Shown: piece after piece, positions 1,614-18,130 of the stretch
Layout: the number at the start of each line of letters is the position of its first letter
How positions within the stretch are numbered: position 1 is the stretch's first letter
Origin: Escherichia coli
GTDB taxonomy: Bacteria; Pseudomonadota; Gammaproteobacteria; Enterobacterales; Enterobacteriaceae
Direction: 5' to 3' (one strand)
Length of the DNA stretch: 64,000 nucleotides
NCBI RefSeq assembly: GCF_044324875.1
Contig: NZ_CP172185.1
Notes under the pieces: generated by a model
The model's database searches: none
The model's input: only the letters and a program-made list of their open reading frames with translations
Told to the model about the DNA's origin: nothing
Translations under genes and position numbers: made by a program

Positions 1614-1888
1614 AACGATGTTGCAACATTATTCAGCGTCATGGAAAAAAGGACTGACTGCACTCTGCTTACTGGCTGTTGCCGGGCTTAGCGGCTGCGA
1701 TCAAAAAGAGAATGCGGCGGCAAAAGTGGAATACGACGAACTTTCGAACAGCCAACCGCTGCGTGTCGATGCTAATAACCATACGGTAACCATGCTGGTG
1801 CAAATTAATGGTCGTTTCCTCACCGACGACACTCGTCACGGTATTGTGAACCGCCCCGGGTTTCCTGGAGAGTGTTTTATCTGTGAAC

Positions 1889-2779
1889 TCAGGCTGCCAG
1901 ATCATCGTTTCCGATGGAAGCATAATAAGCTTTTTCTGCTTCTGCCGGTGGGATATGGCCCAGCCTTTCCAGCAATCGTCGATTGTTATACCAGTCCACC
2001 CACGTGAGTGTGGCCAGCTCCACTTCTGTCCGGTTTTTCCAGCTCTTACGGTGTATTACCTCCGCTTTGTAAAGGCCATTGATGCTCTCCGCCATCGCGT
2101 TGTCATACGAGTCACCAGTACTTCCTGTTGATGCCAGTAATCCGGCTTCCTTAAGCCGCTGTGTGTAGGCCAGCGATACATACTGAGAACCTTTATCACT
2201 GTGATGGACTGTGCCGGACGGTCGACGGGCCCATAACGCCTGCTCCAGAGCATCCAGCACGAATGTCGTTTCCATAGACGATGAGACCCGCCACCCCACG
2301 ATGTATCCGGCAAACACATCAATGATGAACGCCACATAGACGACCCCCTGCCATGTGCTGACGTAAGTAAAATCAGCCACCCACAACTGGTCAGGACGTT
2401 CTGCCACAAACTGACGGTTTACGCGGTCGCCTGCGGCAACGGCTTTCCGGCTGACGGTAGTGCGGACCTTTTTACCCCGGAGAACACCGGCAAGTCCCAT
2501 AACCGCCATGAGGCGCGCCACTGTACATCTGGCTACCCTGATTCCTTCCCGTAACAACTGACGCCAGACTTTACGCACACCGTATACCTGATGATTCCCA
2601 TCGTATACGCGCAGTATCTCTTTCTTCAGCCAGTCATCGCGCTGCGCACGGGCACTGCGTTTATCCGGATGATGTCGCTGTTGCTGACAGTGGTAATACG
2701 TTGACGGGGCAATATGTAGTTCACTGCATACCGGTCCGACCCCGTACAGCTTACGCAGCTTATCCAGCAGTGGCATCAC
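1889..2779 (-). CDS. IS629 OrfB (DDE transposase catalytic subunit)
   Basis: 296 aa rve-domain ORF with IS3-family DDE motifs. Confidence 0.9.
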
Positions 2780-3102
2780 TTTTTCCAGAGGCGGTCGAAC
2801 TCCGCCTTCGCAAAATAAGCGGAAGCCTGGCGAAGGATATCGTTACTGCGGCGCAGTTCACGATTTTCACGTTCCAGCTCTTTCAGACGCTGACGTTCAG
2901 CGGTGGTGAGCCCGCCATCACCGCCTCCGGTATCCCGCTCATGCTGGCGTACCCAGACACGCAGAGTCTCCGGTGTACAGCCAATCTTTGGGGCAATGGA
3001 ACAAATTGCCGCCCACTGTGAGTCATATTCGCCCTGACTTTCCAGAACCATACGAATCGCCCTCTGACGGACTTCGGGGGAAAAACGAGTATTTTTAGTC
3101 AT
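2776..3102 (-). CDS. IS629 OrfA (HTH transposase subunit)
   Basis: 108 aa [19 protein letters not shown]...; overlaps OrfB as in IS3-family programmed -1 frameshift organisation. Confidence 0.9.
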
Positions 3103-3622
3103 TCTGTTTACCTCTTTCTCAGGGAGTTTAGTCTCCAGGATTCCCGGGGCGGTTCATTGTGTTTAAAGATGGCTCCAACGGACATAAATCGCTGTTTATG
3201 GGTTATGCGACCCCGAAAGCATTTTATGAAGCCCTGAAAGAGGCAGGTGGTACACCGGGCGAAAACATGACGATGGATAATAAAGAAACGACTCATGTCA
3301 CAGGCAGCAAACTGGATATTTCGGTCAACTGGCAAGGGGCGGCAAAAGCGTATTCCTTCGATGAAGTGATTGTTGACAGTAATGGCAAGAAACTGGACAT
3401 GCGCTTTGGCGGTAATTTAACGGCAGCAGAAGAGAAGAAAACGGGCTGCCTGGTGTGTCTGGATAGCTGCCCGGTCGGCATCGTCAGCAATGCAACATAC
3501 ACTTATGGTGCGGTTGAAAAACGAGGTGAAGTTAAATTCAAAGGCAATGCCTCGGTTCTCCCGGCGGATAACACGCTGGCAACGGTTACCTTTAAAATCA
3601 CCGAATAAAGCCAGGATAAAGA

Positions 3623-4330
3623 ATGATGAAGATGCAATCGAGAAAAATCTGGTACTACCGTATAACCCTCATCATCCTGTTGTTCGCTATGCTGCTGGCA
3701 TGGGCGCTGCTTCCCGGCGTCCATGAGTTTATTAATCGCAGCGTTGCGGCGTTTGCCGCCGTGGACCAACAGGGTATAGAACGCTTTATTCAGTCTTACG
3801 GCGCACTGGCGGCAGTTGTCTCGTTCTTGTTGATGATTTTGCAGGCCATTGCTGCACCGCTACCTGCGTTTCTGATCACCTTTGCAAATGCGTCGCTGTT
3901 TGGCGCGTTCTGGGGCGGCTTGCTGTCGTGGACCAGTTCGATGGCCGGCGCGGCGCTGTGCTTTTTTATCGCCAGAGTGATGGGCCGCGAAGTGGTGGAA
4001 AAGTTAACGGGTAAAACGGTACTCAATAGTATGGACGGCTTTTTTACCCGCTATGGTAAACACACCATTCTGGTATGCCGATTATTGCCTTTTGTGCCTT
4101 TTGATCCCGTAAGCTATGCTGCCGGTTTGACTTCAATACGTTTTCGCTCGTTTTTTATCGCCACCGGGCTTGGTCAGTTACCAGCGACTATTGTTTATTC
4201 CTGGGCGGGCAGCATGTTAACAGGCGGTACTTTCTGGTTTGTCACCGGACTGTTTATTCTGTTTGCCCTGACCGTGGTGATTTTTATGGCGAAGAAAATA
4301 TGGCTTGAGCGCCAGAAGAGGAATGCCTGA
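3623..4330 (+). CDS. ydjZ: TVP38/TMEM64-family inner membrane protein YdjZ
   Basis: 235 aa ORF; N-terminus MMKMQSRKIWYYRITL as recalled for YdjZ; synteny. Confidence 0.85.
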   Translation: MMKMQSRKIWYYRITLIILLFAMLLAWALLPGVHEFINRSVAAFAAVDQQGIERFIQSYGALAAVVSFLLMILQAIAAPLPAFLITFANASLFGAFWGGLLSWTSSMAGAALCFFIARVMGREVVEKLTGKTVLNSMDGFFTRYGKHTILVCRLLPFVPFDPVSYAAGLTSIRFRSFFIATGLGQLPATIVYSWAGSMLTGGTFWFVTGLFILFALTVVIFMAKKIWLERQKRNA

Positions 4331-4878
4331 TGGGTTTACCGCCGCTTAGCAAAATTCCTTTCATTTTACGTCCGCAGGCGTGGCTGCATCGTCGCCATTA
4401 CGGCGAGGTGCTAAGCCCGATTCGCTGGTGGGGGCGGATCCCGTTTATCTTTTATCTGGTGTCGATGTTTGTCGGCTGGCTGGAGCGCAAACGCTCACCG
4501 CTGGATCCAGTAGTGCGATCGCTTGTCAGCGCGCGCATTGCGCAAATGTGTCTGTGTGAGTTTTGCGTGGATATCACCAGTATGAAAGTCGCCGAGCGCA
4601 CTGGCAGCACCGATAAACTGCTGGCAGTGGCTGACTGGCGGCAAAGCCCGCTCTTTAGCGATGAAGAACGGCTGGCGCTGGAGTACGCCGAAGCCGCAAG
4701 CGTAACGCCGCCAACGGTCGATGATGCCCTGCGTACCCGACTGGCTGCGCATTTTGACGCCCAGGCGCTCACCGAACTGACGGCATTGATCGGACTGCAA
4801 AACCTGTCAGCCCGTTTTAATTCTGCCATGGACATTCCCGCTCAGGGGCTGTGCCGTATTCCTGAAAAACGTTCTTAA
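4330..4878 (+). CDS. ynjA: AhpD-like/carboxymuconolactone-decarboxylase-family protein YnjA
   Basis: 182 aa ORF, start overlaps ydjZ stop; synteny with K-12 gene order. Confidence 0.85.
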   Translation: MGLPPLSKIPFILRPQAWLHRRHYGEVLSPIRWWGRIPFIFYLVSMFVGWLERKRSPLDPVVRSLVSARIAQMCLCEFCVDITSMKVAERTGSTDKLLAVADWRQSPLFSDEERLALEYAEAASVTPPTVDDALRTRLAAHFDAQALTELTALIGLQNLSARFNSAMDIPAQGLCRIPEKRS

Positions 4879-5065
4879 GGAGGGTACTACCTTCACTTCT
4901 ACCTCTGCCTCCCAAACTCCGTAAAACTCATGCACAATCACCATATTACAGTCAACCCGAACATTATGAGCTCCACTGAATTCTACTGTTCACCCCCTAA
5001 ATCAAGCATAAAATGGGGGCATATTTGGGGGCCCATTGTGTTCAGTCAGTTTCAGGAGCCCCCAT

Positions 5066-6253
5066 ATGGCACTTACAGCCAGACAAGTCGAAACAGCCAA
5101 ACCTAAAGACAAAGATTATAAACTCTCTGATGAACGTGGTTTATATCTGCTGGTAAAAACCACGGGAGCACGCTACTGGCGCTTTAAGTACAGGATAGCA
5201 GGAAAGGAGAAAAAACTGTCCTTCGGTGTCTATCCTGACGTCTCCCTTGCAGAAGCCAGAACCAAACGCGACGATGCAAGGAAAATTATCTCCGAGGGCG
5301 GTGATCCCGGTGAAAAGAAACGAAGGGAAAAACTCTCACAGAAAATCTCTGTCACCAACACCTTCCATGCTCTCGCAATCGAATGGCATCATCATAAATC
5401 TTTATCATGGTCTGACAGTTACGCCAGAAGCGTACTGGAAGCTCTGGATAAAGACGTTTTCCCGTATCTGAGCAACCGGAGCGTTACTGATATCCTTCCA
5501 CTGGAAATGCTGGAAATACTACGTCGAATTGAAAAACGAGGCTCTCTGGAAAAACTACGCAAGGTCCGGCAATACTGCAATCAGATTTTCCGTTATGCCA
5601 TAGCCACAGGACGAGCCACTGTCAATCCAGCCTCAGAACTGAGCAGCACGCTGGCGGCACCAAAAACCGCACATTTTCCCCATCTGAGAGCGGATGAACT
5701 TCCTGTTTTTCTCCGGAAGCTCGCTGACTATCACGGCAGTCCTGTCACTCGTATGGCTACAAACCTGCTGATTCTGACCGGGCTCAGAACGATTGAATTG
5801 CGACTGGCCGAATGGTCAGAAATTGATTCTAGCAACGCACTCTGGCATATCCCTAGAGAGAGAATGAAAATGCGCCGGCCTCATATTGTTCCTCTGTCAC
5901 GCCAGGTCATTTCTGTTCTGCAGGAATTACATGGTTTTACCGGACAGTATCGCCTTATGCTACCCGGACGTTGCGATGTAAACAAACCTATGAGTGAAGG
6001 CTGCATCAATATGGTGCTCAAACGTATCGGTTACGATGGCAGGGCAACCGGTCATGGTTTTCGTCACACCATGAGTACCATTCTGCACGAACAGGGCTTT
6101 AATTCTGCCTGGATTGAAATGCAGTTAGCTCATGTGGATAAAAACTCCATCAGGGGTACCTATAATCATGCACATTATCTCGATGGTCGCCGTAAAATGA
6201 TGCAGTGGTACGCTGATTACATTGATTCTCTTATGGGAAAAACGCACAAATGA
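5066..6253 (+). CDS. Tyrosine recombinase, P4-type island integrase
   Basis: ORF 5036..6253; likely start MALTARQVETAKPKDKDYKL at 5066 with AGGAG 8 nt upstream; P4-integrase N-terminal signature and C-terminal catalytic region (HGFRHT...Y). Confidence 0.85.
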   Translation: MALTARQVETAKPKDKDYKLSDERGLYLLVKTTGARYWRFKYRIAGKEKKLSFGVYPDVSLAEARTKRDDARKIISEGGDPGEKKRREKLSQKISVTNTFHALAIEWHHHKSLSWSDSYARSVLEALDKDVFPYLSNRSVTDILPLEMLEILRRIEKRGSLEKLRKVRQYCNQIFRYAIATGRATVNPASELSSTLAAPKTAHFPHLRADELPVFLRKLADYHGSPVTRMATNLLILTGLRTIELRLAEWSEIDSSNALWHIPRERMKMRRPHIVPLSRQVISVLQELHGFTGQYRLMLPGRCDVNKPMSEGCINMVLKRIGYDGRATGHGFRHTMSTILHEQGFNSAWIEMQLAHVDKNSIRGTYNHAHYLDGRRKMMQWYADYIDSLMGKTHK

Positions 6254-6263
6254 AATAAACCAT

Positions 6264-6310
6264 CCCCCACCAACTGCAGCGGTTGGTGGGGGCTTAACTG
6301 TTATTTTTTG
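6264..6310 (+). terminator. Perfect 11-bp stem hairpin (CCCCCACCAAC-tgcagcg-GTTGGTGGGGG) followed by T-rich tract
   Basis: Seen directly, 10 nt after the integrase stop; could terminate either strand. Confidence 0.45.
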
Positions 6311-6639
6311 ATTTTTGCCTTCAGGCGTGTCCACAGGAAAATGCAAACTGCGGTATATACCCGTGTGATAAACAACAGTTTAAGGCTGAAATACTCTCCT
6401 GCCTCGCTGGCATTCGTTTCAAACATAGCGAAAAGAACACTCTGCGAGAACTCATGACTATAAATAAAATAATAACAGAGTGCTGTCAGTGACGTAGTCC
6501 AGAGAATAATACCGACAACCGCTGCAATAATTTTTATCCGTTCTGGAAAAAGAAACACGGGTATCCGCCACAGGGAGCTGAATAACAGTGAATCTCGTAT
6601 TCCATTTATTCCACCGTATCCGGTGCTGAAGATAATCAC
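6301..6639 (-). pseudogene. N-terminal ~110 aa fragment of an OpgE/EptA-like membrane phosphoethanolamine transferase
   Basis: ORF MIIFSTGY...FETNASEAGEYFSLKLLF...RLKAKIKK resembles the N-terminal TM region of sulfatase-family pEtN transferases; the catalytic domain is missing. Confidence 0.4.
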
Positions 6640-6803
6640 CTGCAGCAGGGTGGAAAAGATAAAGTATCGCCCCCGTGCGCTCCGGCTGAAAGCAGGTCTG
6701 CTGTTTCCGGCATTTAAATGTATTGACCATCTCCCGGTAAAATGTAATAAATCCCCCGTTACCGGAAAACCGATGAACAGAATTCGGACAGAAAATGAGT
6801 TCC

Positions 6804-7746
6804 TCAGTTACCTGTTGCGTTTCCCCCGGTCTGATGAGCCAGAGACACAATGGTCTGTACCGTTCTGTTGATATTAAACCGGTATTCGATATCTTCTCTG
6901 GCGCTGGCAACCATCATCCTGAAGCGTTCCGGGCGGGACAAAAAATCCCGAAGCGCACTGGTCCATGCAGTCATATCTCCCACAGGTAAAAGTGTTCCTG
7001 TCACATTTTTCTGAATGGCATCCGGGATCCCGCCAGTCTCACTGGCAATAACGGGAACACCGGAGGCTGACGCTTCAGCCAGGACCATGCCAAATGCCTC
7101 ATTTTTCAGAAGGCATGATAGCACACTGGCAACCCGGTATATCGGTAACGCCGGGAAAACAGCACCAGCCATGAAAACATCACCACTCATTCCCAGTGAT
7201 TCAATCTGCAGGCGAAGGCGTTCTTCGTATTCCTCACGACCAGCGCCCACCACGAGCCATCGAAATACTTTCCCTTCCATCTTCAGTTGGTGCAACACCC
7301 GGAGCATAAATTCATGCCCTTTCTCGGGACGCAACATACCCACCTGGACAATCAGCGGGATATTGCCCGCTGATTCTGTCCATCCCTGAATATGCGGAGG
7401 TAACTGTTGCCTGACTTCTCTGTGTAATACAGAAACGATGCCAGCATATCAGACGGCTCAGGCCTGCAATGTTACTGTCATGACCACTGTGGCAGATTAC
7501 CAGATCAGGTCTGAATTACCGGATTACCTGCCGCAGTCTGATGATGGAAGGAAGGTGAAGACTGTTCCTGAAAGGAATAAAAGTAACATCATGTCCGATT
7601 GTTCTGGCTTCATGAGCTATTTTACTTTTTTCCCTGCAGGCGAGTAAAACAGAATGCCCCTGTTTCTGGAGCGCTGTCATCTGTGCCAGAGCCTGTAACT
7701 CCTGGCCACCAATATCTGGTGAAGACTCAGTGAATAAAATCTTCAT
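6804..7746 (-). pseudogene. Family-1 (GT4-type) glycosyltransferase, frameshifted
   Basis: N-terminal ORF 7516..7746 and C-terminal ORF 6804..7343 (motif EAFGMVLAEASASGVPVIASETGGIPD) are in different frames with stops between them. Confidence 0.6.
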
Positions 7747-8401
7747 TATTAATTCTCTGGTAATCTTGGCCCCTTATGAAGAGCCAGTAATGAAGAGAAA
7801 AATGGCGTGATATAATAAAAAGGCACCGTTTCAGCCAACCGCAATATTCCCGTTCTTTTGTACTAATACGTCCTATAAGTAATGAACCTTTTACAGGGCA
7901 GTTCATTCTTCTTTCCGTTGTATATAAATAAGATAAACCAAGTTCTCTGGTGAGATTAATATAATCTCTGCTATAATATCCTGCAGGCCAGCATAGATGG
8001 GGACTACAGTATCCCAGTTTTTCCTTCAGACATTGTTTGCCTGTCATAATAGCTTCTTCCATGAGTCGGCACTGCTCAGTACGTGGTACAGACAGTCTGT
8101 CCCAGCGTTTATGTGAATGGGTATGTAAATGGAATTCAACAAGACCGGAATCACGCATTTCCCGGACTTCAGACCAGCGAAGCATCACTTCATCGGAACG
8201 GTTATCTGCAATCAACTGCTCACAGTCGCGATGCGAATATTCCCGTTTCTGTCTGTAACGCACCTTCCCGTCACCAATCAACCCTGTAATGAGAAAAATA
8301 TGCGTATGAAGATTGTATTCCTTCAGTACCGGCCATGCCCGGAACCAGTTATCAAGATATCCGTCATCGAATGTAATCATGAAGCTCTTTCTTGGAAGCA
8401 T
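7727..8401 (-). CDS. Polysaccharide deacetylase (NodB-homology domain)
   Basis: 224 aa ORF with the TFDDGY motif near the N-terminus; 3' end overlaps the glycosyltransferase start (operon-like). Confidence 0.6.
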   Translation of the reverse strand: MLPRKSFMITFDDGYLDNWFRAWPVLKEYNLHTHIFLITGLIGDGKVRYRQKREYSHRDCEQLIADNRSDEVMLRWSEVREMRDSGLVEFHLHTHSHKRWDRLSVPRTEQCRLMEEAIMTGKQCLKEKLGYCSPHLCWPAGYYSRDYINLTRELGLSYLYTTERRMNCPVKGSLLIGRISTKEREYCGWLKRCLFIISRHFSLHYWLFIRGQDYQRINNEDFIH

Positions 8402-9417
8402 TCCCCCCTGATAAAAATATTAAAGTTCAGCGGATGTTACTGTCCGCCAGTTATTTTTTGCGAGCCACTCTATCTGTTCACAAAATATTTCAGGTGAAAG
8501 TGTCACAAGCCCCGGACAGCGACTGACATGATGGTACATCAGTACGGGAAGATGTCTTGCATTCAACATAAAGCATTATCACCAGTTAGTTATACAGTAA
8601 ATATACCCCGAGTAAAAACAGGGCGGTTTAGGATATGTCTGGCTCCGGGTATTCTACTATGTAATCAGGGAATAATGGACAATGAGAATACAACAGACAC
8701 TTTTAATATTTCCGACTGTTTATCAAAATAATTTTATCCTTTGTGAATATATTGTTTTTATCAGATGATTTACTTATTTTCCAGGAAAATAAAATCCTTC
8801 GATTTCAGGACACTCAGAGGAATATACCTGCTTCCGTCAAAAATCATAAAAACCGTGTCCCGATTAGTTTTAGCAGCAGGATCAAATGCAGTAATATAAT
8901 GATCTTATACCAGTAAGCCACTGGGAAATGCCCTCAAAATGTCGTGCACTGATTTTTCGGTTGAGAGCCTCATAATACCTAATATTACTGGCCGTAATAA
9001 TCCGGAGGCACAGCATAGCTTTCTTGTACAGAGGCATCATGATGAACAGGATTAATACCGTCACAGATGCACAAGTTTTACCCGTGATAAAGAATCCCGT
9101 TTTGTCCGCACTTGCCTGCGCCAGCGTTGAAAACGTGCCGGTTATTGTAGTTAAGTTATTGCCGCTAACTTTTTCACAACCCACCTATCCGGATATTTCC
9201 TTATTCTTCATATATTACATCTCATAAATTTAAATGTGAGTTTCTCATGGGTAAAATAAATTATACGAATCGCATCAATAGGAAAGACAGACGGTGCTGC
9301 CGATATAAAACGGGAAGTGACGGGATAAGCAGTTATGTGAATATTGTTTCAAAAAATGATATTTTGTGTTGTTAAAGTATAACTTTGCAATAAGCTATCC
9401 ATGATGGGATTCTGTAA

Positions 9418-9771
9418 ATGAACAAAACACTCTCTTCAATTCTGCTCATCTTCGGTATCTGTGCATCATCACTGGCTGCTGATAAAAAAGAACCGTCAGT
9501 TTTCCACGATGTGAAGGGCAGGAAGCATCGGCTGTTTCAGCCAGCGTCAAACGGAACTATCTCCAGAAACAGGTGCTTCACAGGAAAGATGACTAGGTGC
9601 TCCTCAGTCAGCAGCGTCCTGTTGTCTGGGTGAATCTTCGTGAGCTGGTAAGTAAAGGTGATAATTTAGTCACAGCGCATCTCACCGCCAGGGGGAATAA
9701 AGCCGATATTCAGTATCGGGTGCGCATTGACTGTAAGAACGAAAACGCTATCTGGCAGCGCCAGGGATGAA
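9418..9771 (+). pseudogene. Small signal-peptide protein, broken by frameshifts and an in-frame amber codon
   Basis: ORF 9418..9633 has an N-terminal signal peptide; the continuation ...VNLRELVSKGDNLVTAHLTARGNKADIQYR.../...VRIDCKNENAIWQRQG lies in other frames; family not recognised. Confidence 0.3.
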
Positions 9772-10267
9772 CGCTTGAAGATAACCACAGAGTATGAACA
9801 AACGGACTCTACATGTTCATTATGACTAAAAAAACGCTGCACGTTCTCTGTTTTATTTTACGTTGCTGTCATAACGTGTTTACCTCAATTTTCGGGAACG
9901 TGTTCTTAGCGCTTAGACTACCCCTGAATCTTCTGCTGTTGAAGGGCCGTAACAGGGTAAGTGATAACAGATGTCTGGACATATAGGAGCAAATTCACCG
10001 ATTTACTTAATCATGATGTTATTTTGTAAAATAAGCTGAGGGGAGTTTCACATAATGTTAGTTTTTGTGTAAACGCAAGAAGGAAAATCAATAAAATTAA
10101 TATATAGTTATATGTTGTAGGTGTGAGTATGACTGTTTGGCCGTGGAGTGCATTCCTAAATTAGGATTGGATCATTTAAGGTTTAACACATTATTAAATA
10201 CGGCAAATTACAGTAAAATACTTTGCCGTATTTAGAAATAAAATTAAATTTTTCTATAGAATATTAT

Positions 10268-10657
10268 TTATCTGAATTTTCGGTGGCCTTCCAGTTTTAT
10301 ATTATTCATTTTATCCAGAGCATCACGTAGTGACTCTATATTCCCCGACTCAACCTTCTCTTTTGCAAGATTGATTTCATTTTGTAGTTTCTTCAACTCA
10401 TTCTTATAACTTTCCACTGCGACTTTATCGTTGCTGTTTATTTTTTCAGGAAGAGTATTCATGGAAGCATTTACAGCTTTGTCCATCATATCAAGAGCAT
10501 TTAATAGAGATTTTTTATCACCAGAGGATTGTAGAGTGCTCATATTTCTTGCAAGGCTCTGCATATTTTTATCCAGTCCGGAAGCCAAAGATATATGACT
10601 GGTAGATAAACACATTACAAGTATAGAACTCACAATAAAGAATTTTTGTTTCTTCAT
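10268..10657 (-). CDS. Cytochrome b562-family periplasmic protein (divergent)
   Basis: 129 aa; signal peptide; four-helix-bundle-like sequence with Met near the mature N-terminus (DKNMQSL) and C-terminal ...EGHRKFR resembling the CybC ...YHQKYR heme-ligand region; AT-rich surroundings. Confidence 0.55.
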   Translation of the reverse strand: MKKQKFFIVSSILVMCLSTSHISLASGLDKNMQSLARNMSTLQSSGDKKSLLNALDMMDKAVNASMNTLPEKINSNDKVAVESYKNELKKLQNEINLAKEKVESGNIESLRDALDKMNNIKLEGHRKFR

Positions 10658-10954
10658 TAATTTACTCCTATTCGAAAGTGATTATCGTCATGGCAATTTA
10701 ACTTTATTATTCTATCTTTTATGGATGTACATCTCCTATATGGGTATACACAAGAAAATGTGATGCATTTCTAAAAACTATTCTACTTTATTCGGTATTG
10801 CTGAATGATTCACCATTAAGAAAATAGATATAACAGTTCTTTATTTCTTTTATTTAACATGGTTGTATTAAATATTCAACAGGTTTTCTAATACCAGTTG
10901 GGCTTTGTTGAAAAAATCTGATTTAGGGTAAGAGCCCCGTAGCTAGTTGTGCTT

Positions 10955-11560
10955 TCAGGCAATACGCACGCTCTCAGGCATACCTACTTTCGTGATTTTA
11001 TTCAGCGCTAGCGCCATGACCATACCCTCTGCAACCTGACCATCGTAGTCACGCAGCGTCAGTGAACCTCCGAACAACTGTTTTACCCGGTACATCGCTG
11101 TTTCCGCTATCGAACGACGGTTATAATCTGTTGTCCATTTACACCGGGCATTACTTCCGGTCAGCCGCTGATTAGCCACTGCACGGTTACGGTCTTCGTA
11201 TTCACCGGGCTAGTAACCCGCACCTTTTCGGGAAGGGGTAAGCGCGCTGATTTTCTTACGCCTCAGTTCATCGTGACAGAGTCGGGGGTCGTAAGCCCCG
11301 TCTACCGCTGCAGCCATGATTTTTCTGTGAGTCTGTTGGAGAAGCCCCGGGAAGGCTTCTGAGTCCGTGACGTTGTTCAGCGACAGGTCTGCACAGACAA
11401 TTTCATGTGTGTTGCCATCAACAGACAGATGCGACGCCCCTCTTTGCCGTGCTTTTTGGCTTTCCTTTCGCCTTCCCCAAAGACTTTTAGCCCGTTGGAA
11501 TCAATCACGAGGTGTATGATTTCACCCCGGGTGGGGATTTATGTATAAGAAACAGCGTAT
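10955..11560 (-). pseudogene. DDE transposase remnant (IS5/IS4-like), several frameshifts and an in-frame TAG
   Basis: Frames read ...LHLAVDSNTHEIVCADLSLNN... and ...RDYDGQVAEGMVMALALNKITKVGMPESVRIA; GAGY*PGEY amber at about 11210. Confidence 0.45.
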
Positions 11561-11689
11561 TCGTGAGGGGTGAGCCATGAATAAAATCCCTTTTGAAGTA
11601 TTAATCCACTCTGAAAATGCATTAATCTGCGCAAAGGAAATGGACGCGTTATTAATTAAGTTAATTGATATTCCGGAAAGTGGCGATAA

Positions 11690-11989
11690 AACATATTCGA
11701 TGACGGACAGGCGACAATGTGGTTATCTGTGCTGGCGTTTGGCAGACAGGCCGAAGCACTGGCCAGACACCAGAAAGGCGAACTGGTAAGCGTGGCAGGT
11801 AACATGCAGGTCAGCCAGTGGACAGGGCAGAACGGGAAAACGCGGCAGGGACGGCAGGTTATCGCAGACAGCGTAATCAGTACTCAAACGGTGCGGCCAG
11901 GAGGAAGCAGACGCGAAACCACAGGTACACAGGGTAATCAGCCACCAACGGGAGGCGACGCCACTTACGGAGATGATATACCCTTATGA
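11690..11989 (+). pseudogene. Single-stranded DNA-binding protein, C-terminal fragment only
   Basis: ...MWLSVLAFGRQAEALARHQKGELVSVAGNMQVSQWTGQNGKTRQG...DDIPL parallels the SSB C-terminal half including the acidic DDIPF-like tail; no N-terminal OB-fold part. Confidence 0.5.
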
Positions 11990-12006: not shown

Positions 12007-12327
12007 ATGAACAACAGCACACTGAAGAGCCGGACAATAAGCGACGCGACAGCGGAAGAACTCGAGAGCAGGGGACTGTGGCGACGTGCTGCCAGAAGGT
12101 GGCAGGATGTGATGATTACTCTTGAGAAAGACAGTCACAGACAGCTTGCAGTAATGAGAGCAAGGGAATGTATCAGGAAGGCAAAACGCCCGATACCTGA
12201 AAGCCGTATTGATATTCATACAGTCAGAAAGGCCGCAGACAGGACAATACAAAAAATGGGGCTACCGTCGCTTACTGATGAAATATGGCGCGATTACCCT
12301 GATAGCGTTAACGATGACGGTTATTAA
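12007..12327 (+). CDS. PerC-family transcriptional activator
   Basis: 106 aa; motif AEELESRGLWRRAARRWQDVM typical of PerC/Pch proteins; later KMGLP motif. Confidence 0.55.
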   Translation: MNNSTLKSRTISDATAEELESRGLWRRAARRWQDVMITLEKDSHRQLAVMRARECIRKAKRPIPESRIDIHTVRKAADRTIQKMGLPSLTDEIWRDYPDSVNDDGY

Positions 12328-12610
12328 CTGGCGGGGGAAACACGATACCAGCGGGCGTGACTCGGGAGAATATATACCGCTGGTGGAACATTACCAGCCC
12401 TGATGGCTGGTGGCGTGCGTTACGACCTGAAAGACCATCCATGCGGGAAGGTGACACAGGAGCACCTGGCGAACGCGGGGAAGCGACTGGATGAGATTAA
12501 GAAAAAACAGCAGGAGCGCAGAAAAAGTAACCGTCTCATTAAAACGTCTTTCGCCTCCCTTTCCTGTTTCCTATGCTAATGTCCATTTTCGCAGTAAAAG
12601 GACATTTACG

Positions 12611-12859
12611 ATGAATGCACGAAAGGCGGTACTGGCAGATAATCCGGAATTGATCCTGCGTTTGCTACAACTGAAATTTGACGAGACACTGTCGTACCCG
12701 CGCATTTCTGCACAGACCGGTGTCAGCAAAACCGCTATTTTTTCTCTGGTGAGGCGATTTCATCAGGTATTCACTGACGGGCATCTTTCTGGTGAATATT
12801 CCTGCGTGCAACTGACCGGGCTCTTTTCCCGGGGCGATAATATTCAGCCCCGACAGTGA
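12611..12859 (+). pseudogene. IS21-family IstA N-terminal HTH fragment
   Basis: MNARKAVLADNPELILRLLQLKFDETLSYPRISAQTGVSKTAIFSLVRRF resembles the N-terminus of the IstA at 16595..18130. Confidence 0.35.
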
Positions 12860-13090
12860 CTCAGCCTGTAAAAACAGAGAAAACCCGTCGGAACCGATTT
12901 TCACCAGAGTAAAAATGGAGACTTGTTCAGCAAACTCTTTTACCCGGAGCCTGTGTGGCCCAGATTGCACGAGAGTCTGGCATCAATGATAATGTTATTT
13001 TCAAATGGCTCAGACTCTGGCAAAACGAAGGGCGTGTTTCGCGGCGTCTTCCGGTAACAACCACTTCTGACGCAGGCGTTGAATTATTAC
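12860..13090 (+). pseudogene. Transposase HTH-subunit fragment (IS66/IS3-type)
   Basis: Frame reads ...FSPE*KWRLVQQTLLPGACVAQIARESGINDNVIFKWLR...; stop-interrupted. Confidence 0.3.
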
Positions 13091-13660
13091 CTATGGAGAT
13101 AACGCCGGATGAGCAGAAAGATCCGATGATTCCCCTACCGCCAGCTTTTCGCCTGCGCCGGTATACGTTTCTTTATCTTTGCCCTGCATCACCCACAGGC
13201 TGGCTCCGCCGATAATGGCGTTTTGTGGTGCATCTTTCGCGTCAGCGTCGTAAGGCATCATGCCTACGCCGTAGTTGAATTTGGCGTACTCGCGAATGTT
13301 GGCAAGAGAACCGGAAGAGGCGGTGGTCATCGCGCAATCACCTCTATAGAACTTCTCGGTGGATTCATCCTTACGCCCGACGTAGATGAAGTCGCCCTTC
13401 TTGTTCATCTCCTCGAGCATGACGATGTGTTTCACCTGCTCCGGCTTGTTGAACTCCAGCACCGCGTCCGTGGCGTCAAAACCGTTGTTTTTGCTGGCAA
13501 ACGGCAGACCGTTCCTGGCGCTAAAGTTTTCCAGTTGTATCCACCTCTTTGCCCATTTCCCCTTCCATAGAGTTCCAAAACGGAATGGTCGTCACTGCCT
13601 GTGCATTGCCCATTAACGCCAGTCCGAGCACCAGTGATGAAGCTGTATAATGTAACGGTT
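13091..13660 (-). pseudogene. ugpB: ugpB (sn-glycerol-3-phosphate ABC transporter binding protein) remnant with internal deletion and 3' truncation
   Basis: Signal peptide [30 protein letters not shown]... at the 5' end and ...[16 protein letters not shown]...[11 protein letters not shown]...[18 protein letters not shown] in ORF 13091..13462; about 160 codons missing between them; frames differ. Confidence 0.8.
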
Positions 13661-14419
13661 TCATCGTTTATCTCTCTTGCTTGTTGTACCTGATGTGCAA
13701 ATTCACTCGTTTTATGCTCGCGGGATTACATATCATGCCCGAATTGCAGAAAAATAACTTTTTATTACATGTGTAAGACAGTAAAACCTCAGAAAGATGA
13801 CAGTGTGGTGCCGGCGCGGGTGAGGAAAAATGGAAGATGGGGAATGTATAAGCGGGAAAATAGGAGGGCCTGTGGATTGTAGATAATGTGCTCATCGTTT
13901 TCATGCCGGATGAGACATAAACACTTTTATCTGAGCATTTCTATGTATTCGGACAGTTGTTCTTGGCATCCAATGGTGCAGGTTCTGTAGTGTGTGGTGG
14001 TAGCAATAGCCTCAGCTTCATTACAATATTTATTATCTCAAACATTCAAATGTCCTTGGCCCACTTTGATAGTCACTTTGTCGTGGTTATTATGTCTTTC
14101 CTTTTCCTAAAGCCCCATTATCTGTGCTGCAGCTTTCCCTCCATCAACGAACCAACAACCAGCAATGCCTGTCCCCCATAACAGCCCGGAAAATGGCACA
14201 TTCTCAGATGATTTATCCCGCGAGCTATCCCGCCTACAGCTAATCGACCTGTTTAATACATCTTGACAGTCTGCTGGCAAGGTTACCCTTCCCAATATTG
14301 TCCGTTTTTAACATATCTAATACGAGCCCCCATCAAATATGCTTCGTGTTCACTGTAAGTGACTAAAAGTGCTGTCTGCCCTGCCTCATGCAAAATATCA
14401 CGAACTTCACGGCTCAGTC

Positions 14420-14921
14420 CTACCCTTGTTTTTTATCCAAGCTGGAAAATGGTTCATCTAGCAACAGGATATCTGGATTTGGAACCAGTGACCTTGCAAG
14501 GGCAATACGTTGCTGCTGACCTCCTGAAAGTTCATGAGGATAGCTGTCTGAATAGTGGAATAAATCCACCATTTTCAACAGTTCTGTAACTCTGGTTCGC
14601 TGTACATCTCTCGGCAGTCTTCTCAGACCAAAGCCACGTTTTGTGAAACTGTAAGGTGGGGAAAGAGCGCATATTCCTGAAAGACTATACCGACATGACA
14701 TTTCTCCGGCGGAAAATGCATATCTGCGCTGGCCACACAATGCTGTGATACAAAAATTTCCCCTTGTTCAGGCGCTCAAAACCAGCTACAGCACGTAGTA
14801 CTGTTGTTTTTCCACAACCTGATGTACCAAGCAGACATGCCAGTTCACCTTTACAGACTGACATACCCCCCGCCCCGCAATACAGGATATGGGCTATTGG
14901 GATAAACAACATGGACATCAT
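14420..14921 (-). pseudogene. ABC transporter ATP-binding protein, frameshifted and truncated
   Basis: Walker A GTSGCGKTTVL in ORF 14685..14921; signature [13 protein letters not shown] and Walker B LLLDEP in ORF 14420..14740; different frames. Confidence 0.6.
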
Positions 14922-14951
14922 TAATACATAAAGCTGTTTCTTCAGACATAA

Positions 14952-15552
14952 TCAATCCTCTGATTTCAGTCTTTCAGCTGGAACAAACAAAATAACCGGA
15001 AATGTCCCTGCAAGAACAATCATTAAAGCAGAGATGGCCCCTTCTTCAAAAGTTCCACGGGCTGCTTCAGCATAAAGAAGTGTTACTGGCAGTTCTTTCA
15101 TCGCATCAGTGAAAACCAGCAGGGCACTGCTCACCAGAGCAACACAGGAAAGTGAACCCGAACAAAAGTTCCTGTACCATTTTCTCCCAGCAGACGTGAG
15201 GCTTGTTCCAGTGACGCTGGTATACGTCCCAGCCGGACATCAAGTGCGCCGATGGCTATTGCCTGAAATCGCATCGTACAGCAAATCACCAACAGGACAC
15301 CGACAGACATTAAAGGTAACCCCCTGTAATCCAGTAGTTCCGCCAGCCAGCGGTCATTTAGGGAGTCAGAAAACCAATCGCCAGAATCGTGCCCGGAAAG
15401 GCATAACCCAGCGACGCCCCTCTCATCACACCGCGCCTGAACAGTGGCATAGCGTTGAGGAATTCCGGGCATTCCAGACTACGAGCAGACTGACAAAAAT
15501 TACGACAAAGCGTTGAAGGAAGCCAGCGCGCGGACTGACAGGACTTTACCAT
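14952..15552 (-). pseudogene. ABC transporter permease remnant
   Basis: Hydrophobic ORFs 15358..15552, 15131..15472 and 14952..15134 in three frames, upstream of the ATPase remnant. Confidence 0.45.
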
Positions 15553-15822
15553 AAAAACACAGGCTAACCGCGCCTGCGTTTTTAATGACGGATGAAACAG
15601 AATCAGGTGCCGATTATGCCGCCGTCGGCTTTTACGATAACGACAGTTGAGGAGCGCGGACGACCAGCCTTATCGCCGTCAGGCCAGCTTGATACTGCCG
15701 TCGGATGCTGCGGATCGCTAAGCTGCGTATTCCGCTCTATTCGATCACGGATTGGCATCGAAGTCCGATCAGCGATTCGCATCCATTCGATCAACCGGGA
15801 ACTTAACTTTTTCTACCGCTTT

Positions 15823-16578
15823 TTAACGCGTTTTTTCGCTGCTTTCCACTACCGGGGGATTTTTCCTCAGTGACTCTCCCTGAAGGACCACTCGGTGTGA
15901 GTTATGTACCAGTCTGTCCAGGATGGCATCTGCTGTTGTTGGGTTCTCCATCAGACCATGCCATTTATCTACCGGGAACTGGCTTACCACTATCGTGCTG
16001 CTTTGTCCGTAACGATCCTCTATGAGCTCCAGAAGGTCATTACACTGGGCGTTACTTAACTGTTCCAGCCCCAGATCGTCCAGGATTAGAACCTGTATTT
16101 TTTGCAACTGTTTCAGATATTTCAGCCAGCTGCCATCAACACGTCCCTGAGCCAGTTGTTCCAGTAATCGCCCGGTTCTACAGTACCGGACGCTGTGTTT
16201 CTGTCGACATGCCTGTTCGCCCAGCGCATTGGCTATCCAGCTCTTGCCACATCCTGTCGGACCGGTTATCAGCAGGTTTTTCCTGTGGGTTATGTAGTGG
16301 CCGTTCAGCAGTTCTCTCATCTGTTCAGCCCGCAGACCTCTTGAGGCCGGATAGCGCAGCCCTTCCGGTGTTGCCTGGTATTTCAGGCCGGCATTTTTTC
16401 TCAACCGTGCCACACGGCTGTTTTCCCTGCTCAGAAGCTCGTCATCAACCAGCAGCGTCAGCCTTTCCTCGAACGACAGTTCGTCGTAGGTCTGAGGCGT
16501 TTCCCGCTGCCGTATCAGGCTCCCGGCCATCGCCGGGAGTTTCAGTTGGGTCAGTTTGTTTAACAGGTTATCACTCAT
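15823..16578 (-). CDS. IstB-like ATPase of the IS21-family element
   Basis: Walker A GPTGCGKS; likely start MSDNLLNKL at 16578 with AAGGAA RBS. Confidence 0.8.
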   Translation of the reverse strand: MSDNLLNKLTQLKLPAMAGSLIRQRETPQTYDELSFEERLTLLVDDELLSRENSRVARLRKNAGLKYQATPEGLRYPASRGLRAEQMRELLNGHYITHRKNLLITGPTGCGKSWIANALGEQACRQKHSVRYCRTGRLLEQLAQGRVDGSWLKYLKQLQKIQVLILDDLGLEQLSNAQCNDLLELIEDRYGQSSTIVVSQFPVDKWHGLMENPTTADAILDRLVHNSHRVVLQGESLRKNPPVVESSEKTR

Positions 16579-16594
16579 ACTGTTGTTCCTTCTG

Positions 16595-18130
16595 TCAGTG
16601 GTAGTAGCCCGGACCACGCAGGTTTTCATGCTCTGAAGCATATGCCGGATGTTGTTCGCCCTGGCGGGATAATGGAAGCTCCAGGTTCTCCCGATGGTGA
16701 CGCAGCAGATTGTCGATAAAGCGTCTGTCAGGGGCGTTATAGTGCAGGGCAACGTAACAGGCCTTTTCCAGCCGTTCCGGGCCGTATTTTTTCTGAAGTG
16801 CCAGCAGCCCCAGAACTGCACGATAAGCCAGTTCCGGATGGGGTTTTGCCTTCAGCATGGATTCAACCACCCGGCCTGTGGACGGGCCCGTACGTTTTCC
16901 CTGCTCGATCAGGCGTTCCGGTGTCCATGTCCCGTGCTGCCGGTGGCGCTCTGGCATGTGAAGCGGATTGGTTGTGTGTTTATATTCATGTGTGCTGCGC
17001 GGATGTTGCGCCACACACTGCCCCTTGTGCCAGAGCTGTACCACCGACTGCCCCGCCTTCAGTGACAGACGCTGACCGACCAGTTCGTGTGGAACGGAGT
17101 ACCAGTGACGGGCATATTCAACGTGGTAGTCAGGGCCAACCTTCACAGCTTTGTATTCCGTGTATTCATAAGGTGCCAGAGGCAGCGGAGAGAGTGCTGG
17201 CGCATCCAGTATGCGGAAGCGTTCTGCACGGGTTTGATTGCCGTACCCCTTCATTGGCCGGTTATTCATGTCTGTCAGTAACTCCCTAAGGCGCGCATTC
17301 AGCGCCCTGAGCGTGTGGAAGGTTTCATTACGGATGCGGGCAAGAAGCCATCGTTCAACGATGAGGACGCCGTTTTCTGCTTTTGGTTTATCTTTAGGTT
17401 TGCGTGGTCGGGCCGGGATGATAACCGTGCCATAGTGCTCAGCCAGTGCCTGATAACTGTCGTTGATGACAGGCTCATATCGATCGGCCTTTTTCACTGC
17501 GCTTCTGAGGTTATCGGGGATGAGCAGCTTCGGTACGCCGCCCAGGAAGGTCAGGCAACGGCTGTGGGCATTTAACCATGACATCATGTCCTGACCTTCG
17601 CACGCTTCAACGTAGGTATAGTTGGACGCCCCCATTACGGCCACGAAGATTGCCACGCGGCGTATCTCACCGGTGTCCGGATTAATAACAGGAACCGTAG
17701 GACCACAGAAGTCGATAAAAAGCTTTTCGCCGGCACGATGCTCCTGGCGCATGGAGAGACGTCGCGTTTTTTTCCACTCCCGGTAGCAACGGCAGAAGTG
17801 CGAGTATCCCATCGCTTTGTTACCCGCCTGTGCCTTGTATTCCATCCACAACAGTTGCCGCGTCACACCTGGTTTTCTCATTTCCGTATCGAAGTACAAC
17901 ATGTCAGGCATTACAAGCTCTGATGCAAAGGTGTCTTTGGGCGGAAAAATGAGTTTCTCCAGCGTGTCATGGGATATATCAGCAGGTAATGGCCATGACA
18001 GAGAAGAGGCTTTGAAGCGGGCAAGAACCTCAAAAACGGTTGAGGCGCTGATGTGTAACGTCAGTCCGATACAACGGTTAGTCAGCTTCTTGTCGAACTT
18101 GAGCTGAAGGATCTTAAAACAGGTTTCCAT
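16595..18130 (-). CDS. IstA-like DDE transposase of the IS21-family element
   Basis: 548 aa ORF; likely start METCFKILQ at 18130 with AGGAG RBS; N-terminal HTH and rve core. Confidence 0.8.
   Translation of the reverse strand: METCFKILQLKFDKKLTNRCIGLTLHISASTVFEVLARFKASSLSWPLPADISHDTLEKLIFPPKDTFASELVMPDMLYFDTEMRKPGVTRQLLWMEYKAQAGNKAMGYSHFCRCYREWKKTRRLSMRQEHRAGEKLFIDFCGPTVPVINPDTGEIRRVAIFVAVMGASNYTYVEACEGQDMMSWLNAHSRCLTFLGGVPKLLIPDNLRSAVKKADRYEPVINDSYQALAEHYGTVIIPARPRKPKDKPKAENGVLIVERWLLARIRNETFHTLRALNARLRELLTDMNNRPMKGYGNQTRAERFRILDAPALSPLPLAPYEYTEYKAVKVGPDYHVEYARHWYSVPHELVGQRLSLKAGQSVVQLWHKGQCVAQHPRSTHEYKHTTNPLHMPERHRQHGTWTPERLIEQGKRTGPSTGRVVESMLKAKPHPELAYRAVLGLLALQKKYGPERLEKACYVALHYNAPDRRFIDNLLRHHRENLELPLSRQGEQHPAYASEHENLRGPGYYH

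Follow-up and report, generated by a model that had tools for sequence, protein, structure and literature searches.

Closest described systems

In published accounts (PMC2323221, PMC2811833), the ecf operon is described as the lipid A and lipopolysaccharide (LPS) modification system of plasmid pO157; together with a third paper (PMC9420067), they describe it as thermoregulated and as helping, jointly with the lpxM gene of the chromosome, the bacteria to persist in cattle. The subject of this report is a chromosomal relative of that operon, located at 6322–8569 on the minus strand of a 64,000-bp stretch of Escherichia coli DNA (contig NZ_CP172185.1; the whole stretch is called the window). A second described relative is the shf(SfpgdA)-capU/rfbU(Sfgtr4)-virK-msbB2 locus of Shigella pINV and enteroaggregative E. 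coli (EAEC) pAA2. The Shigella locus is PhoP-regulated, and mutation of its genes raises sensitivity to lysozyme and to neutrophils and affects invasion and biofilm formation; SfPgdA has been reported as a peptidoglycan deacetylase, while SfGtr4 moves glucose onto lipid A in vitro (PMC7355660). Work on the phosphoethanolamine transferases of O157 (PMC6408774) concerns peaX, which is a gene other than plasmid ecf3.

The locus in the window is a pseudogenised, truncated member of this known operon family, and belongs to a little-noticed chromosomal lineage of it. The region 6322–8569 very probably represents an ecf-type operon for envelope modification, in a chromosomal copy that no longer functions and is decaying. 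Approximately eleven discrete lesions were mapped against two references, namely the chromosome of strain LH50-c (L002) and the pO157-type plasmid copy on pO165 (L003); these lesions are directly visible in the sequence and a full-length product from any gene of the cluster is now impossible. The features concerned, with the evidence for each, were as follows.

6322–6723, minus strand: 5' stub of an ecf3-like CptA/EptC-type phosphoethanolamine transferase gene (alignment to the plasmid and LH50-c copies, NCBIfam CptA, Pfam EptA_B_N)
6804–7746, minus strand: ecf2-like GT4 glycosyltransferase pseudogene (tblastn, alignments, Pfam)
7749–8569, minus strand: ecf1-like CE4 (PgaB/IcaB-type) polysaccharide deacetylase pseudogene (tblastn, three-way DNA alignment, Pfam PF01522, PGAP)
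6322–6327, no strand: deletion junction, hexamer CAGGCG (alignments to strain Ch1, junction sequences)

Comparison with plasmid operons

For the three genes that survive, the window copy contained the same families in the same order and orientation as the ecf1-ecf2-ecf3-ecf4(msbB2/lpxM2) operon of pO157 and related EHEC/aEPEC plasmids, and the junction between the ecf1 stop and the ecf2 start was kept in the window, in LH50-c and in the plasmid copy. An earlier note, made from the letters of this DNA, had recognised a NodB-type deacetylase, a GT4 glycosyltransferase and a phosphoethanolamine-transferase-like stub; a domain search with Pfam and NCBIfam showed all three to be real and far above chance. 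Their operon-like arrangement on the minus strand beside an integrase (5066–6253, plus strand) was likewise borne out. Comparison with homologous clusters allowed an ancestral four-gene ecf-type operon to be reconstructed from LH50-c, strain Ch1 (L006, NZ_CP127316.1) and the plasmid copy, all of which had the full four-gene order. The window retained the first three genes of the ecf set in the right order, while the fourth was lost through a 3.7-kb deletion. Unlike pO157 ecf, the window copy was chromosomal, lay inside a P4-integrase island and represented a divergent lineage, with its fourth gene deleted and the remaining three inactivated.

Three-way alignment gave DNA identities of 95.4% between the window and LH50-c, 84.2% between the window and the plasmid copy (2,258 aligned columns), and 85.1% between LH50-c and the plasmid copy. 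Around 500 Escherichia plasmids of the pO157 type carried the four-gene ecf unit at approximately 84% DNA identity, and on these the depositors had named the products 'polysaccharide deacetylase Ecf1', 'LPS 1,7-N-acetylglucosamine transferase Ecf2', 'membrane protein' and 'lipid A myristoyl transferase MsbB2'. At the protein level, identity of the LH50-c deacetylase was 90.5% with plasmid Ecf1 and 69% with Shf/SfPgdA from plasmids of Shigella and EAEC. The shf locus shares this homologous first gene, and it also has a GT4 gene second and lpxM/msbB2 last; however, its third gene is virK (checked in the S. sonnei plasmid locus), where the window has a CptA-type gene, and its sequences are far more distant than those of pO157 ecf.

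The deacetylase gene

The ancestral deacetylase gene ran from a start at 8569 to a stop at 7751–7749. The earlier description of this gene as apparently intact was not sustained: codon 50 had changed in frame from GAA/GAG to TAA (8422–8420), a 1-bp deletion (T6 to T5 at 7821–7817) shifted the frame at around codon 250, and PGAP flagged the gene as a pseudogene. The final 23 residues were replaced by 38 out-of-frame residues. Similarly, the right-hand limit of 8401 proposed for the cluster had to be moved to the ancestral start, since 8401 is an internal Met codon (Met-57) at which a 224-aa open reading frame (ORF) begins; homologues from chromosomes, pO157 and Shigella all aligned over approximately 273 residues from the upstream ATG. 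When the intact 273-aa deacetylase of LH50-c was compared with the window by tblastn, the match was 93% identical and was interrupted by an internal stop and a frame change.

The 224-aa ORF (7727–8401) matched Pfam Polysacc_deac_1 (PF01522) with E = 2.3e-22 and 79.7 bits, against a cut-off of 23.1, and covered positions 5–123 of the 124 in the model. It also retained the TFDD and HLHTHSH (HxHxH) motifs. A Tyr-His motif at codons 12–13 preceded the codon-50 TAA and so fell outside this ORF, which means that the CE4 motifs are no longer in one polypeptide. In the PgaB/IcaB-type subfamily the CE4 domain is circularly permuted (PMC5855634); the active-site residues of E. coli PgaB include His55 with Asp114/Asp115 (PMC7112194), and the H49A variant of Bordetella PgaB is inactive (PMC5933820). 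The N-terminus of the intact homologue aligned with solved IcaB-type structures from residue 6 ('vlmYHhv' versus 'vlcYHrv'). The Tyr-His motif thus had its counterpart in IcaB (4wcj), whereas the DD motif was common to the wider PgaB/IcaB group; the lost N-terminal motif probably holds the catalytic histidine of the family. Its putative equivalence to PgaB His55 was taken from the IcaB alignment and the spacing of approximately 55 residues before the DD motif.

It could be supposed that the deacetylase remains functional, the 224-aa ORF from Met-57 encoding an enzyme with a working NodB domain and decay being confined to the genes downstream. In favour of this, the ORF is open for 224 codons, covers nearly the whole domain model and keeps both motifs; but it lacks the N-terminal 50 residues with the Tyr-His motif, its C-terminal 23 residues have been replaced, and homologues begin at the upstream ATG, from which the window frame meets TAA at codon 50. 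Moreover, on the branch leading to the window, ecf1 alone accumulated 13 non-synonymous and 3 synonymous substitutions. This explanation is very improbable; judged on the motifs lost, the 224-aa ORF is unlikely still to work as a deacetylase.

The best solved-structure relatives of the deacetylase were in the PgaB/IcaB group (4wcj, E = 1e-20; PgaB, BpsB), as were its closest curated relatives, and GT4 enzymes are common in exopolysaccharide loci. Both facts are compatible with the cluster being the remnant of an exopolysaccharide locus, similar to those for poly-N-acetylglucosamine (PGA) or polysaccharide intercellular adhesin (PIA), or of an O-antigen or capsule locus, rather than of an ecf-type LPS and lipid A operon. 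However, the deacetylase fell far below the equivalog cut-offs for PgaB (101 bits against 322) and IcaB (71 bits against 248), and showed no evident signal peptide or lipobox. Synthase and exporter genes of the pgaA/C/D type, and so the partner synthase and porin, were absent in every relative. Given these three observations, the deacetylase is not a member of a PGA/PIA system. Furthermore, the intact relatives pair both genes with a CptA-type transferase and lpxM, and the homology to annotated ecf1-4 was 84% in DNA and 90.5% in the Ecf1 protein, which leaves a polysaccharide-locus origin with a very slight probability indeed. The role in LPS or exopolysaccharide modification suggested in the earlier note was therefore upheld in part: homology to ecf supports modification of LPS and lipid A, and does not support a generic exopolysaccharide cluster.

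The glycosyltransferase gene

The two domains of the ecf2-like gene were recovered in separate ORFs, the first at 6804–7343 (Pfam Glycos_transf_1, E = 9.9e-27) and the second at 7516–7746 (Pfam Glyco_transf_4, E = 1.2e-4). They no longer form one chain, being split by a nonsense change at codon 78 (GAA to TAA at 7518–7516) and by a frameshifting 164-bp deletion at 7433/7432, with the loss of around 50 codons; an imperfect repeat, TTTC(A/T)GTATTA, was present on the flanks of the deletion. Accordingly, tblastn with the intact 368-aa glycosyltransferase of LH50-c returned two pieces in different frames, with codons ~112–160 gone. A –1 shift at ~7121 and a +1 shift (A4 to A5 in the run at 7106–7102) left five codons scrambled between them, and there was a further –1 shift at ~6827. 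The E-x7-E motif (EAFGMVLAE) was kept. The earlier note had called this gene frameshifted, in agreement with both the alignment and PGAP; indeed, RefSeq/PGAP labelled the glycosyltransferase and the deacetylase 'frameshifted; internal stop', and PGAP called all three cluster genes pseudogenes.

In two other strains, an IS3-family insertion sequence (IS) occupied the 5' part of the glycosyltransferase pseudogene, at 6721–10204 in NZ_OY754357.1 (L016) and 4221–5434 in NZ_CP120557.1 (L017). In strain F1022, the IS3 element in the pseudogene was itself split by a group II intron, the ltrA of which was intact. The presence of IS3 elements, with or without the intron, indicates that erosion is continuing, and these events represent nested mobile-element insertion into already dead DNA.

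The transferase stub and the 3.7-kb deletion

The third gene had been described as an N-terminal stub, and this was so: its match to NCBIfam CptA (8.2e-43) covered only model positions 22–131 of 556. The stub retained the transmembrane region, from codon 1 to approximately codon 134 of 573, and the ORF at 6301–6639 matched Pfam EptA_B_N (E = 1.1e-5). No PF00884 sulfatase domain followed the stub, unlike in the relatives, and homology ended at 6322; the catalytic, periplasmic, sulfatase-fold domain of the CptA-type transferase, which in this family accompanies a five-helix N-terminal membrane domain, is gone from the window copy. Within the stub, the start codon had changed from ATG to ATA (6723–6721), and there were deletions of 4 bp (~6673) and 7 bp (~6660), as well as a 12-bp in-frame slippage deletion (~6396). 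The stub and intact Ecf3 belong to the same NCBIfam CptA family as chromosomal CptA/EptC (YijP), the phosphoethanolamine transferase of the LPS core (intact Ecf3 scored 1061 bits against a cut-off of 404). EptC acts on heptose I. Compared with CptA/EptC, the window stub is an island or plasmid paralogue reduced to ~134 membrane codons without the catalytic domain.

The origin of the truncation was evident from strain Ch1. Window positions 6045–6327, comprising the 3' end of the integrase, a terminator hairpin and approximately 35 bp more, were 78% identical to 10384–10674 in Ch1, where a TPR gene, lpxM and cptA come after an integrase 3' fragment. Positions 6322–7435 of the window were 92% identical to 14402–15541 in Ch1. 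The two matches overlapped in the window by CAGGCG, and this hexamer was found at both breakpoints in Ch1 (10669–10674 and 14397–14402), which points to a single microhomology-mediated deletion of 3,728 bp in Ch1 coordinates. As reconstructed from these alignments, one such 3.7-kb deletion took out the TPR gene and lpxM2 along with the last three-quarters of cptA2. The islands of both LH50-c and Ch1 were homologous to the two sides of the junction. The reconstruction against Ch1 shows that the operon was original cargo beside an integrase of this island family, and so the idea that these genes were former island cargo, raised in the earlier note, held good.

Selection and the nature of the lesions

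Substitutions were polarised using the plasmid copy as outgroup. Non-synonymous and synonymous changes numbered 27 and 12 on the window branch, but 4 and 12 on the LH50-c branch (Fisher p = 0.006). The window-branch substitutions therefore look nearly neutral, and the counts fit prolonged neutral drift rather than recent accidental damage. The plasmid outgroup also argues against the references, instead of the window, carrying the derived states. Together with the nonsense codons, frameshifts and deletions, and the IS insertions of other strains, this accorded with the view in the earlier note that the genes are being lost.

Some homopolymer lesions are of a kind typical of long-read errors, so that the damage might in principle be an assembly or sequencing artefact of one window. 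However, the region 5000–9500 was 99.9–100% identical in 28 of 5,426 complete E. coli genomes (100.0% in 18 and 99.9% in 10), which came from differing laboratories, hosts and countries, and PGAP found the same pseudogenes. Identical sequence in 28 independent complete genomes shows that the lesions are not sequencing errors; an artefact was thereby refuted, and its probability is practically nil.

Another explanation would treat the frameshifts as reversible on/off switches in homopolymer runs, that is, as phase variation at a contingency locus. Three lesions do fall in short runs, in ecf1 (T6 to T5), ecf2 (A4 to A5) and a neighbouring yebF-like gene (A9 to A7). The runs are only 5–9 bp long, however, and no length variants were apparent in the 28 genomes over the 4.5-kb query; besides, the two nonsense changes, the loss of a start codon and the deletions of 164 bp and 3.7 kb are irreversible. 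There is scarcely any likelihood that these genes are phase-variable.

Decay of an ecf-type operon remained the favoured interpretation, and several points weigh against it. The 224-aa ORF still contains the Pfam-defined core of the deacetylase with its TFDD and HxHxH motifs, and residual deacetylase activity would be excluded only by inference from the lost Tyr-His motif and the scrambled C-terminus. Biochemical assignments for Ecf1 and Ecf2 are provisional even where the plasmid and Shigella homologues are concerned. Finally, the region upstream of the chromosomal copy is not homologous to the pO157 promoter.

The window cluster is thus a case of ordinary gene decay. It matters little for biology, but shows how island cargo erodes through one microhomology deletion, point lesions and IS insertions, and it ties three generically annotated pseudogenes to the envelope-modification operons ecf (pO157) and shf-msbB2 (Shigella). 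For annotation, none of the ORFs of the 224-aa 'deacetylase', the 179-aa 'GT' and a 57-aa 'YebF family protein' should be taken for a functional gene, and virulence-gene screens that score ecf and shf homologues could be misled by the remnant.

Proposed function and decay of the ancestral operon

The ancestral unit would have consisted of four genes, transcribed in the direction of the integrase from a promoter lying before ecf1. Its predicted products are a PgaB/IcaB-type deacetylase with a circularly permuted CE4 domain (ecf1), a GT4 glycosyltransferase of the GT-B fold (ecf2), a CptA/EptC-type transferase (ecf3) and a second lipid A myristoyltransferase (ecf4, lpxM2/msbB2) that would add a secondary acyl chain. 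No signal peptide was evident on Ecf1 or Ecf2 when read from the sequence, nor a lipobox on Ecf1; the lack of an obvious signal peptide suggests that the two may act as a pair on the cytoplasmic face, where a hexose or N-acetylglucosamine (GlcNAc) would be added to LPS or to a lipid-linked acceptor, and would then be de-N-acetylated. The WabH/WabN pair of Klebsiella would be comparable to the pair proposed here. Ecf3 would place phosphoethanolamine on the core, in the periplasm. By homology with pO157 ecf and the Shigella/EAEC shf locus, the complete operon would have altered LPS and lipid A, and perhaps peptidoglycan as well. The window copy can carry out none of these steps.

In the proposed sequence of events, the 3.7-kb CAGGCG deletion would have fused the region downstream of the integrase to ecf3 at approximately codon 134. 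Then, or earlier, nonsense codons, homopolymer frameshifts and slippage deletions would have accumulated under relaxed selection.

Near-complete chromosomal relatives

Strain LH50-c carried a copy of 95% identity made up of four consecutive genes, in which the 273-aa deacetylase, the 368-aa glycosyltransferase and the second lpxM were intact while the CptA-type gene was frameshifted. Strain Ch1 (12047–16840) showed this arrangement too, within a tRNA-Phe island, with intact deacetylase and glycosyltransferase genes and pseudogenes of lpxM and cptA. The order in these pheV-type islands was tRNA-Phe, integrase (3' fragment), TPR gene, lpxM2, cptA2, GT4, deacetylase, yebF-like and dolP-like. They shared with the window 95% DNA identity over 6322–9814, the yebF-like gene and the 3' end of the integrase, but differed from it in having the TPR and dolP-like genes and in their integration context. 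Ch1 was found to carry both versions, that is, a decayed copy (1004170–1008670) 100% identical to the window as well as the near-complete copy.

Among the near-complete copies examined, the deacetylase and glycosyltransferase were intact and lpxM was usually intact, but the CptA-type gene was broken wherever it was called. PGAP marked it as a pseudogene in LH50-c and Ch1, and it was split into ORFs of 351 aa and 199 aa in L008 (about 10068–11735), L010, L012 and L014. An exact match to the deacetylase protein was recorded for 143 blocks in the assembly collection, which indicates that the lineage is commoner in draft genomes than two complete genomes suggest; several of its carrier strains came from poultry.

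It is possible, although we hold this tentatively and think it less probable than its negation, that the chromosomal ecf-like lineage is a separate module for envelope remodelling, mobile on P4-integrase islands and functional to this day, from which the phosphoethanolamine transferase has been repeatedly or ancestrally discarded, with the window as an end-point of decay after redundancy. If so, it is the intact relatives, and not the window, that would bear on LPS structure, resistance to lysozyme and serum, and gut colonisation.

Upstream region and yebF-like gene

The block of shared ancestry was wider than that delimited in the earlier note, extending from 6322 to ~9814 and including two further features.

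8570–9417, no strand: AT-rich region (37–39% GC) between ecf1 and the divergent yebF-like gene (composition profile, homology to LH50-c, plasmid matches)
9418–9770, plus strand: broken yebF-family gene, divergent from the operon (three-frame translation, alignment to LH50-c, NCBIfam YebF match of the LH50-c homologue)

The AT-rich region of approximately 850 bp is presumed to be the former promoter region. It was common to LH50-c and Ch1, and homology to LH50-c reached 9814, whereas matches to pO157-type plasmids ended at 8616–8621, approximately 50 bp upstream of the ecf1 start. The plasmid regulatory region, reported to contain intrinsically curved DNA (BNT2; PMC2811833), thus appears not to be shared. 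Since the AT-rich upstream region is different, regulation of the chromosomal lineage may differ from that of the thermoregulated plasmid promoter. A scan for sigma-70-like promoters returned 8 sites against 8.6 expected from shuffled sequence, and so showed no excess.

In the yebF-like gene, a 2-bp deletion in an A-run (A7, compared with A9 in LH50-c) put the YebF domain out of frame with its signal peptide, and there was also a nonsense change from CAG to TAG. RefSeq called the 57-aa C-terminal piece an intact 'YebF family protein'.

Genomic setting

Two features adjoined the cluster on its left.

5066–6253, plus strand: P4-family tyrosine integrase gene (Pfam Arm-DNA-bind_3, Phage_int_M and Phage_integrase; PGAP)
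6264–6292, no strand: GC-rich hairpin with an 11-bp stem (terminator scan; alignment to Ch1)

The integrase marks the left end of the island, beside ynjA, and is convergent with the dead operon. The hairpin lies directly past its stop codon, is followed by T-runs on both strands and was conserved beside the integrase fragment in Ch1; it is likely to be a bidirectional terminator. RefSeq/PGAP placed ydjX-ydjY-ydjZ-ynjA before the integrase and, after it, a partial phosphoethanolamine transferase domain protein, the GT4 glycosyltransferase, the polysaccharide deacetylase, a YebF-family protein and cytochrome b562.

Strains carrying this island locus include ECCNB12-2 and SFE8. In ECCNB12-2, the island spanned approximately 96 kb, from the integrase to just before ynjB. 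A flanking direct repeat was not found when both ends were compared, and no word of at least 10 bp was shared between the ynjA-integrase junction (4879–5066) and the sequence before ynjB (L007, 41970–42190). ARAGORN identified no tRNA genes in the window, and a literature search for an island at ynjA returned no text mentioning ynjA. The island contained IS debris together with iha, a PhoX-family gene, an amiC paralogue, an ibrB-like gene, PAPS-reductase, sodC, sitABCD and iucABCD-iutA. Between ~15000 and 64000 in the window, fragments of IS3, IS21, IS66, IS110, IS256 and IS630 were present according to the annotation of loci L004 and L007. Scattered among them, iha, the PhoX-family phosphatase gene, the extra amiC, the ibrB-like gene, the PAPS-reductase genes and sodC were apparently intact; many ABC-transporter genes and genes for integrative and conjugative element (ICE) proteins in this part were pseudogenes.

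An IS3-family element at ~1849–3155 (orfA 2776–3102 and orfB 1889–2779, minus strand) splits ydjY in the window. The near-identical ECCNB12-2 was without this element, but had an ISEc12 at the equivalent of ~11021 that was absent from the window; these differences indicate that the source of the window is another strain within this group of island carriers. Finally, a cytochrome b562 paralogue on the minus strand (10268–10657) was intact, encoding 129 aa with a signal peptide (Pfam E = 6.7e-16), and lay in a segment of 31–32% GC just outside the block common to LH50-c and Ch1.

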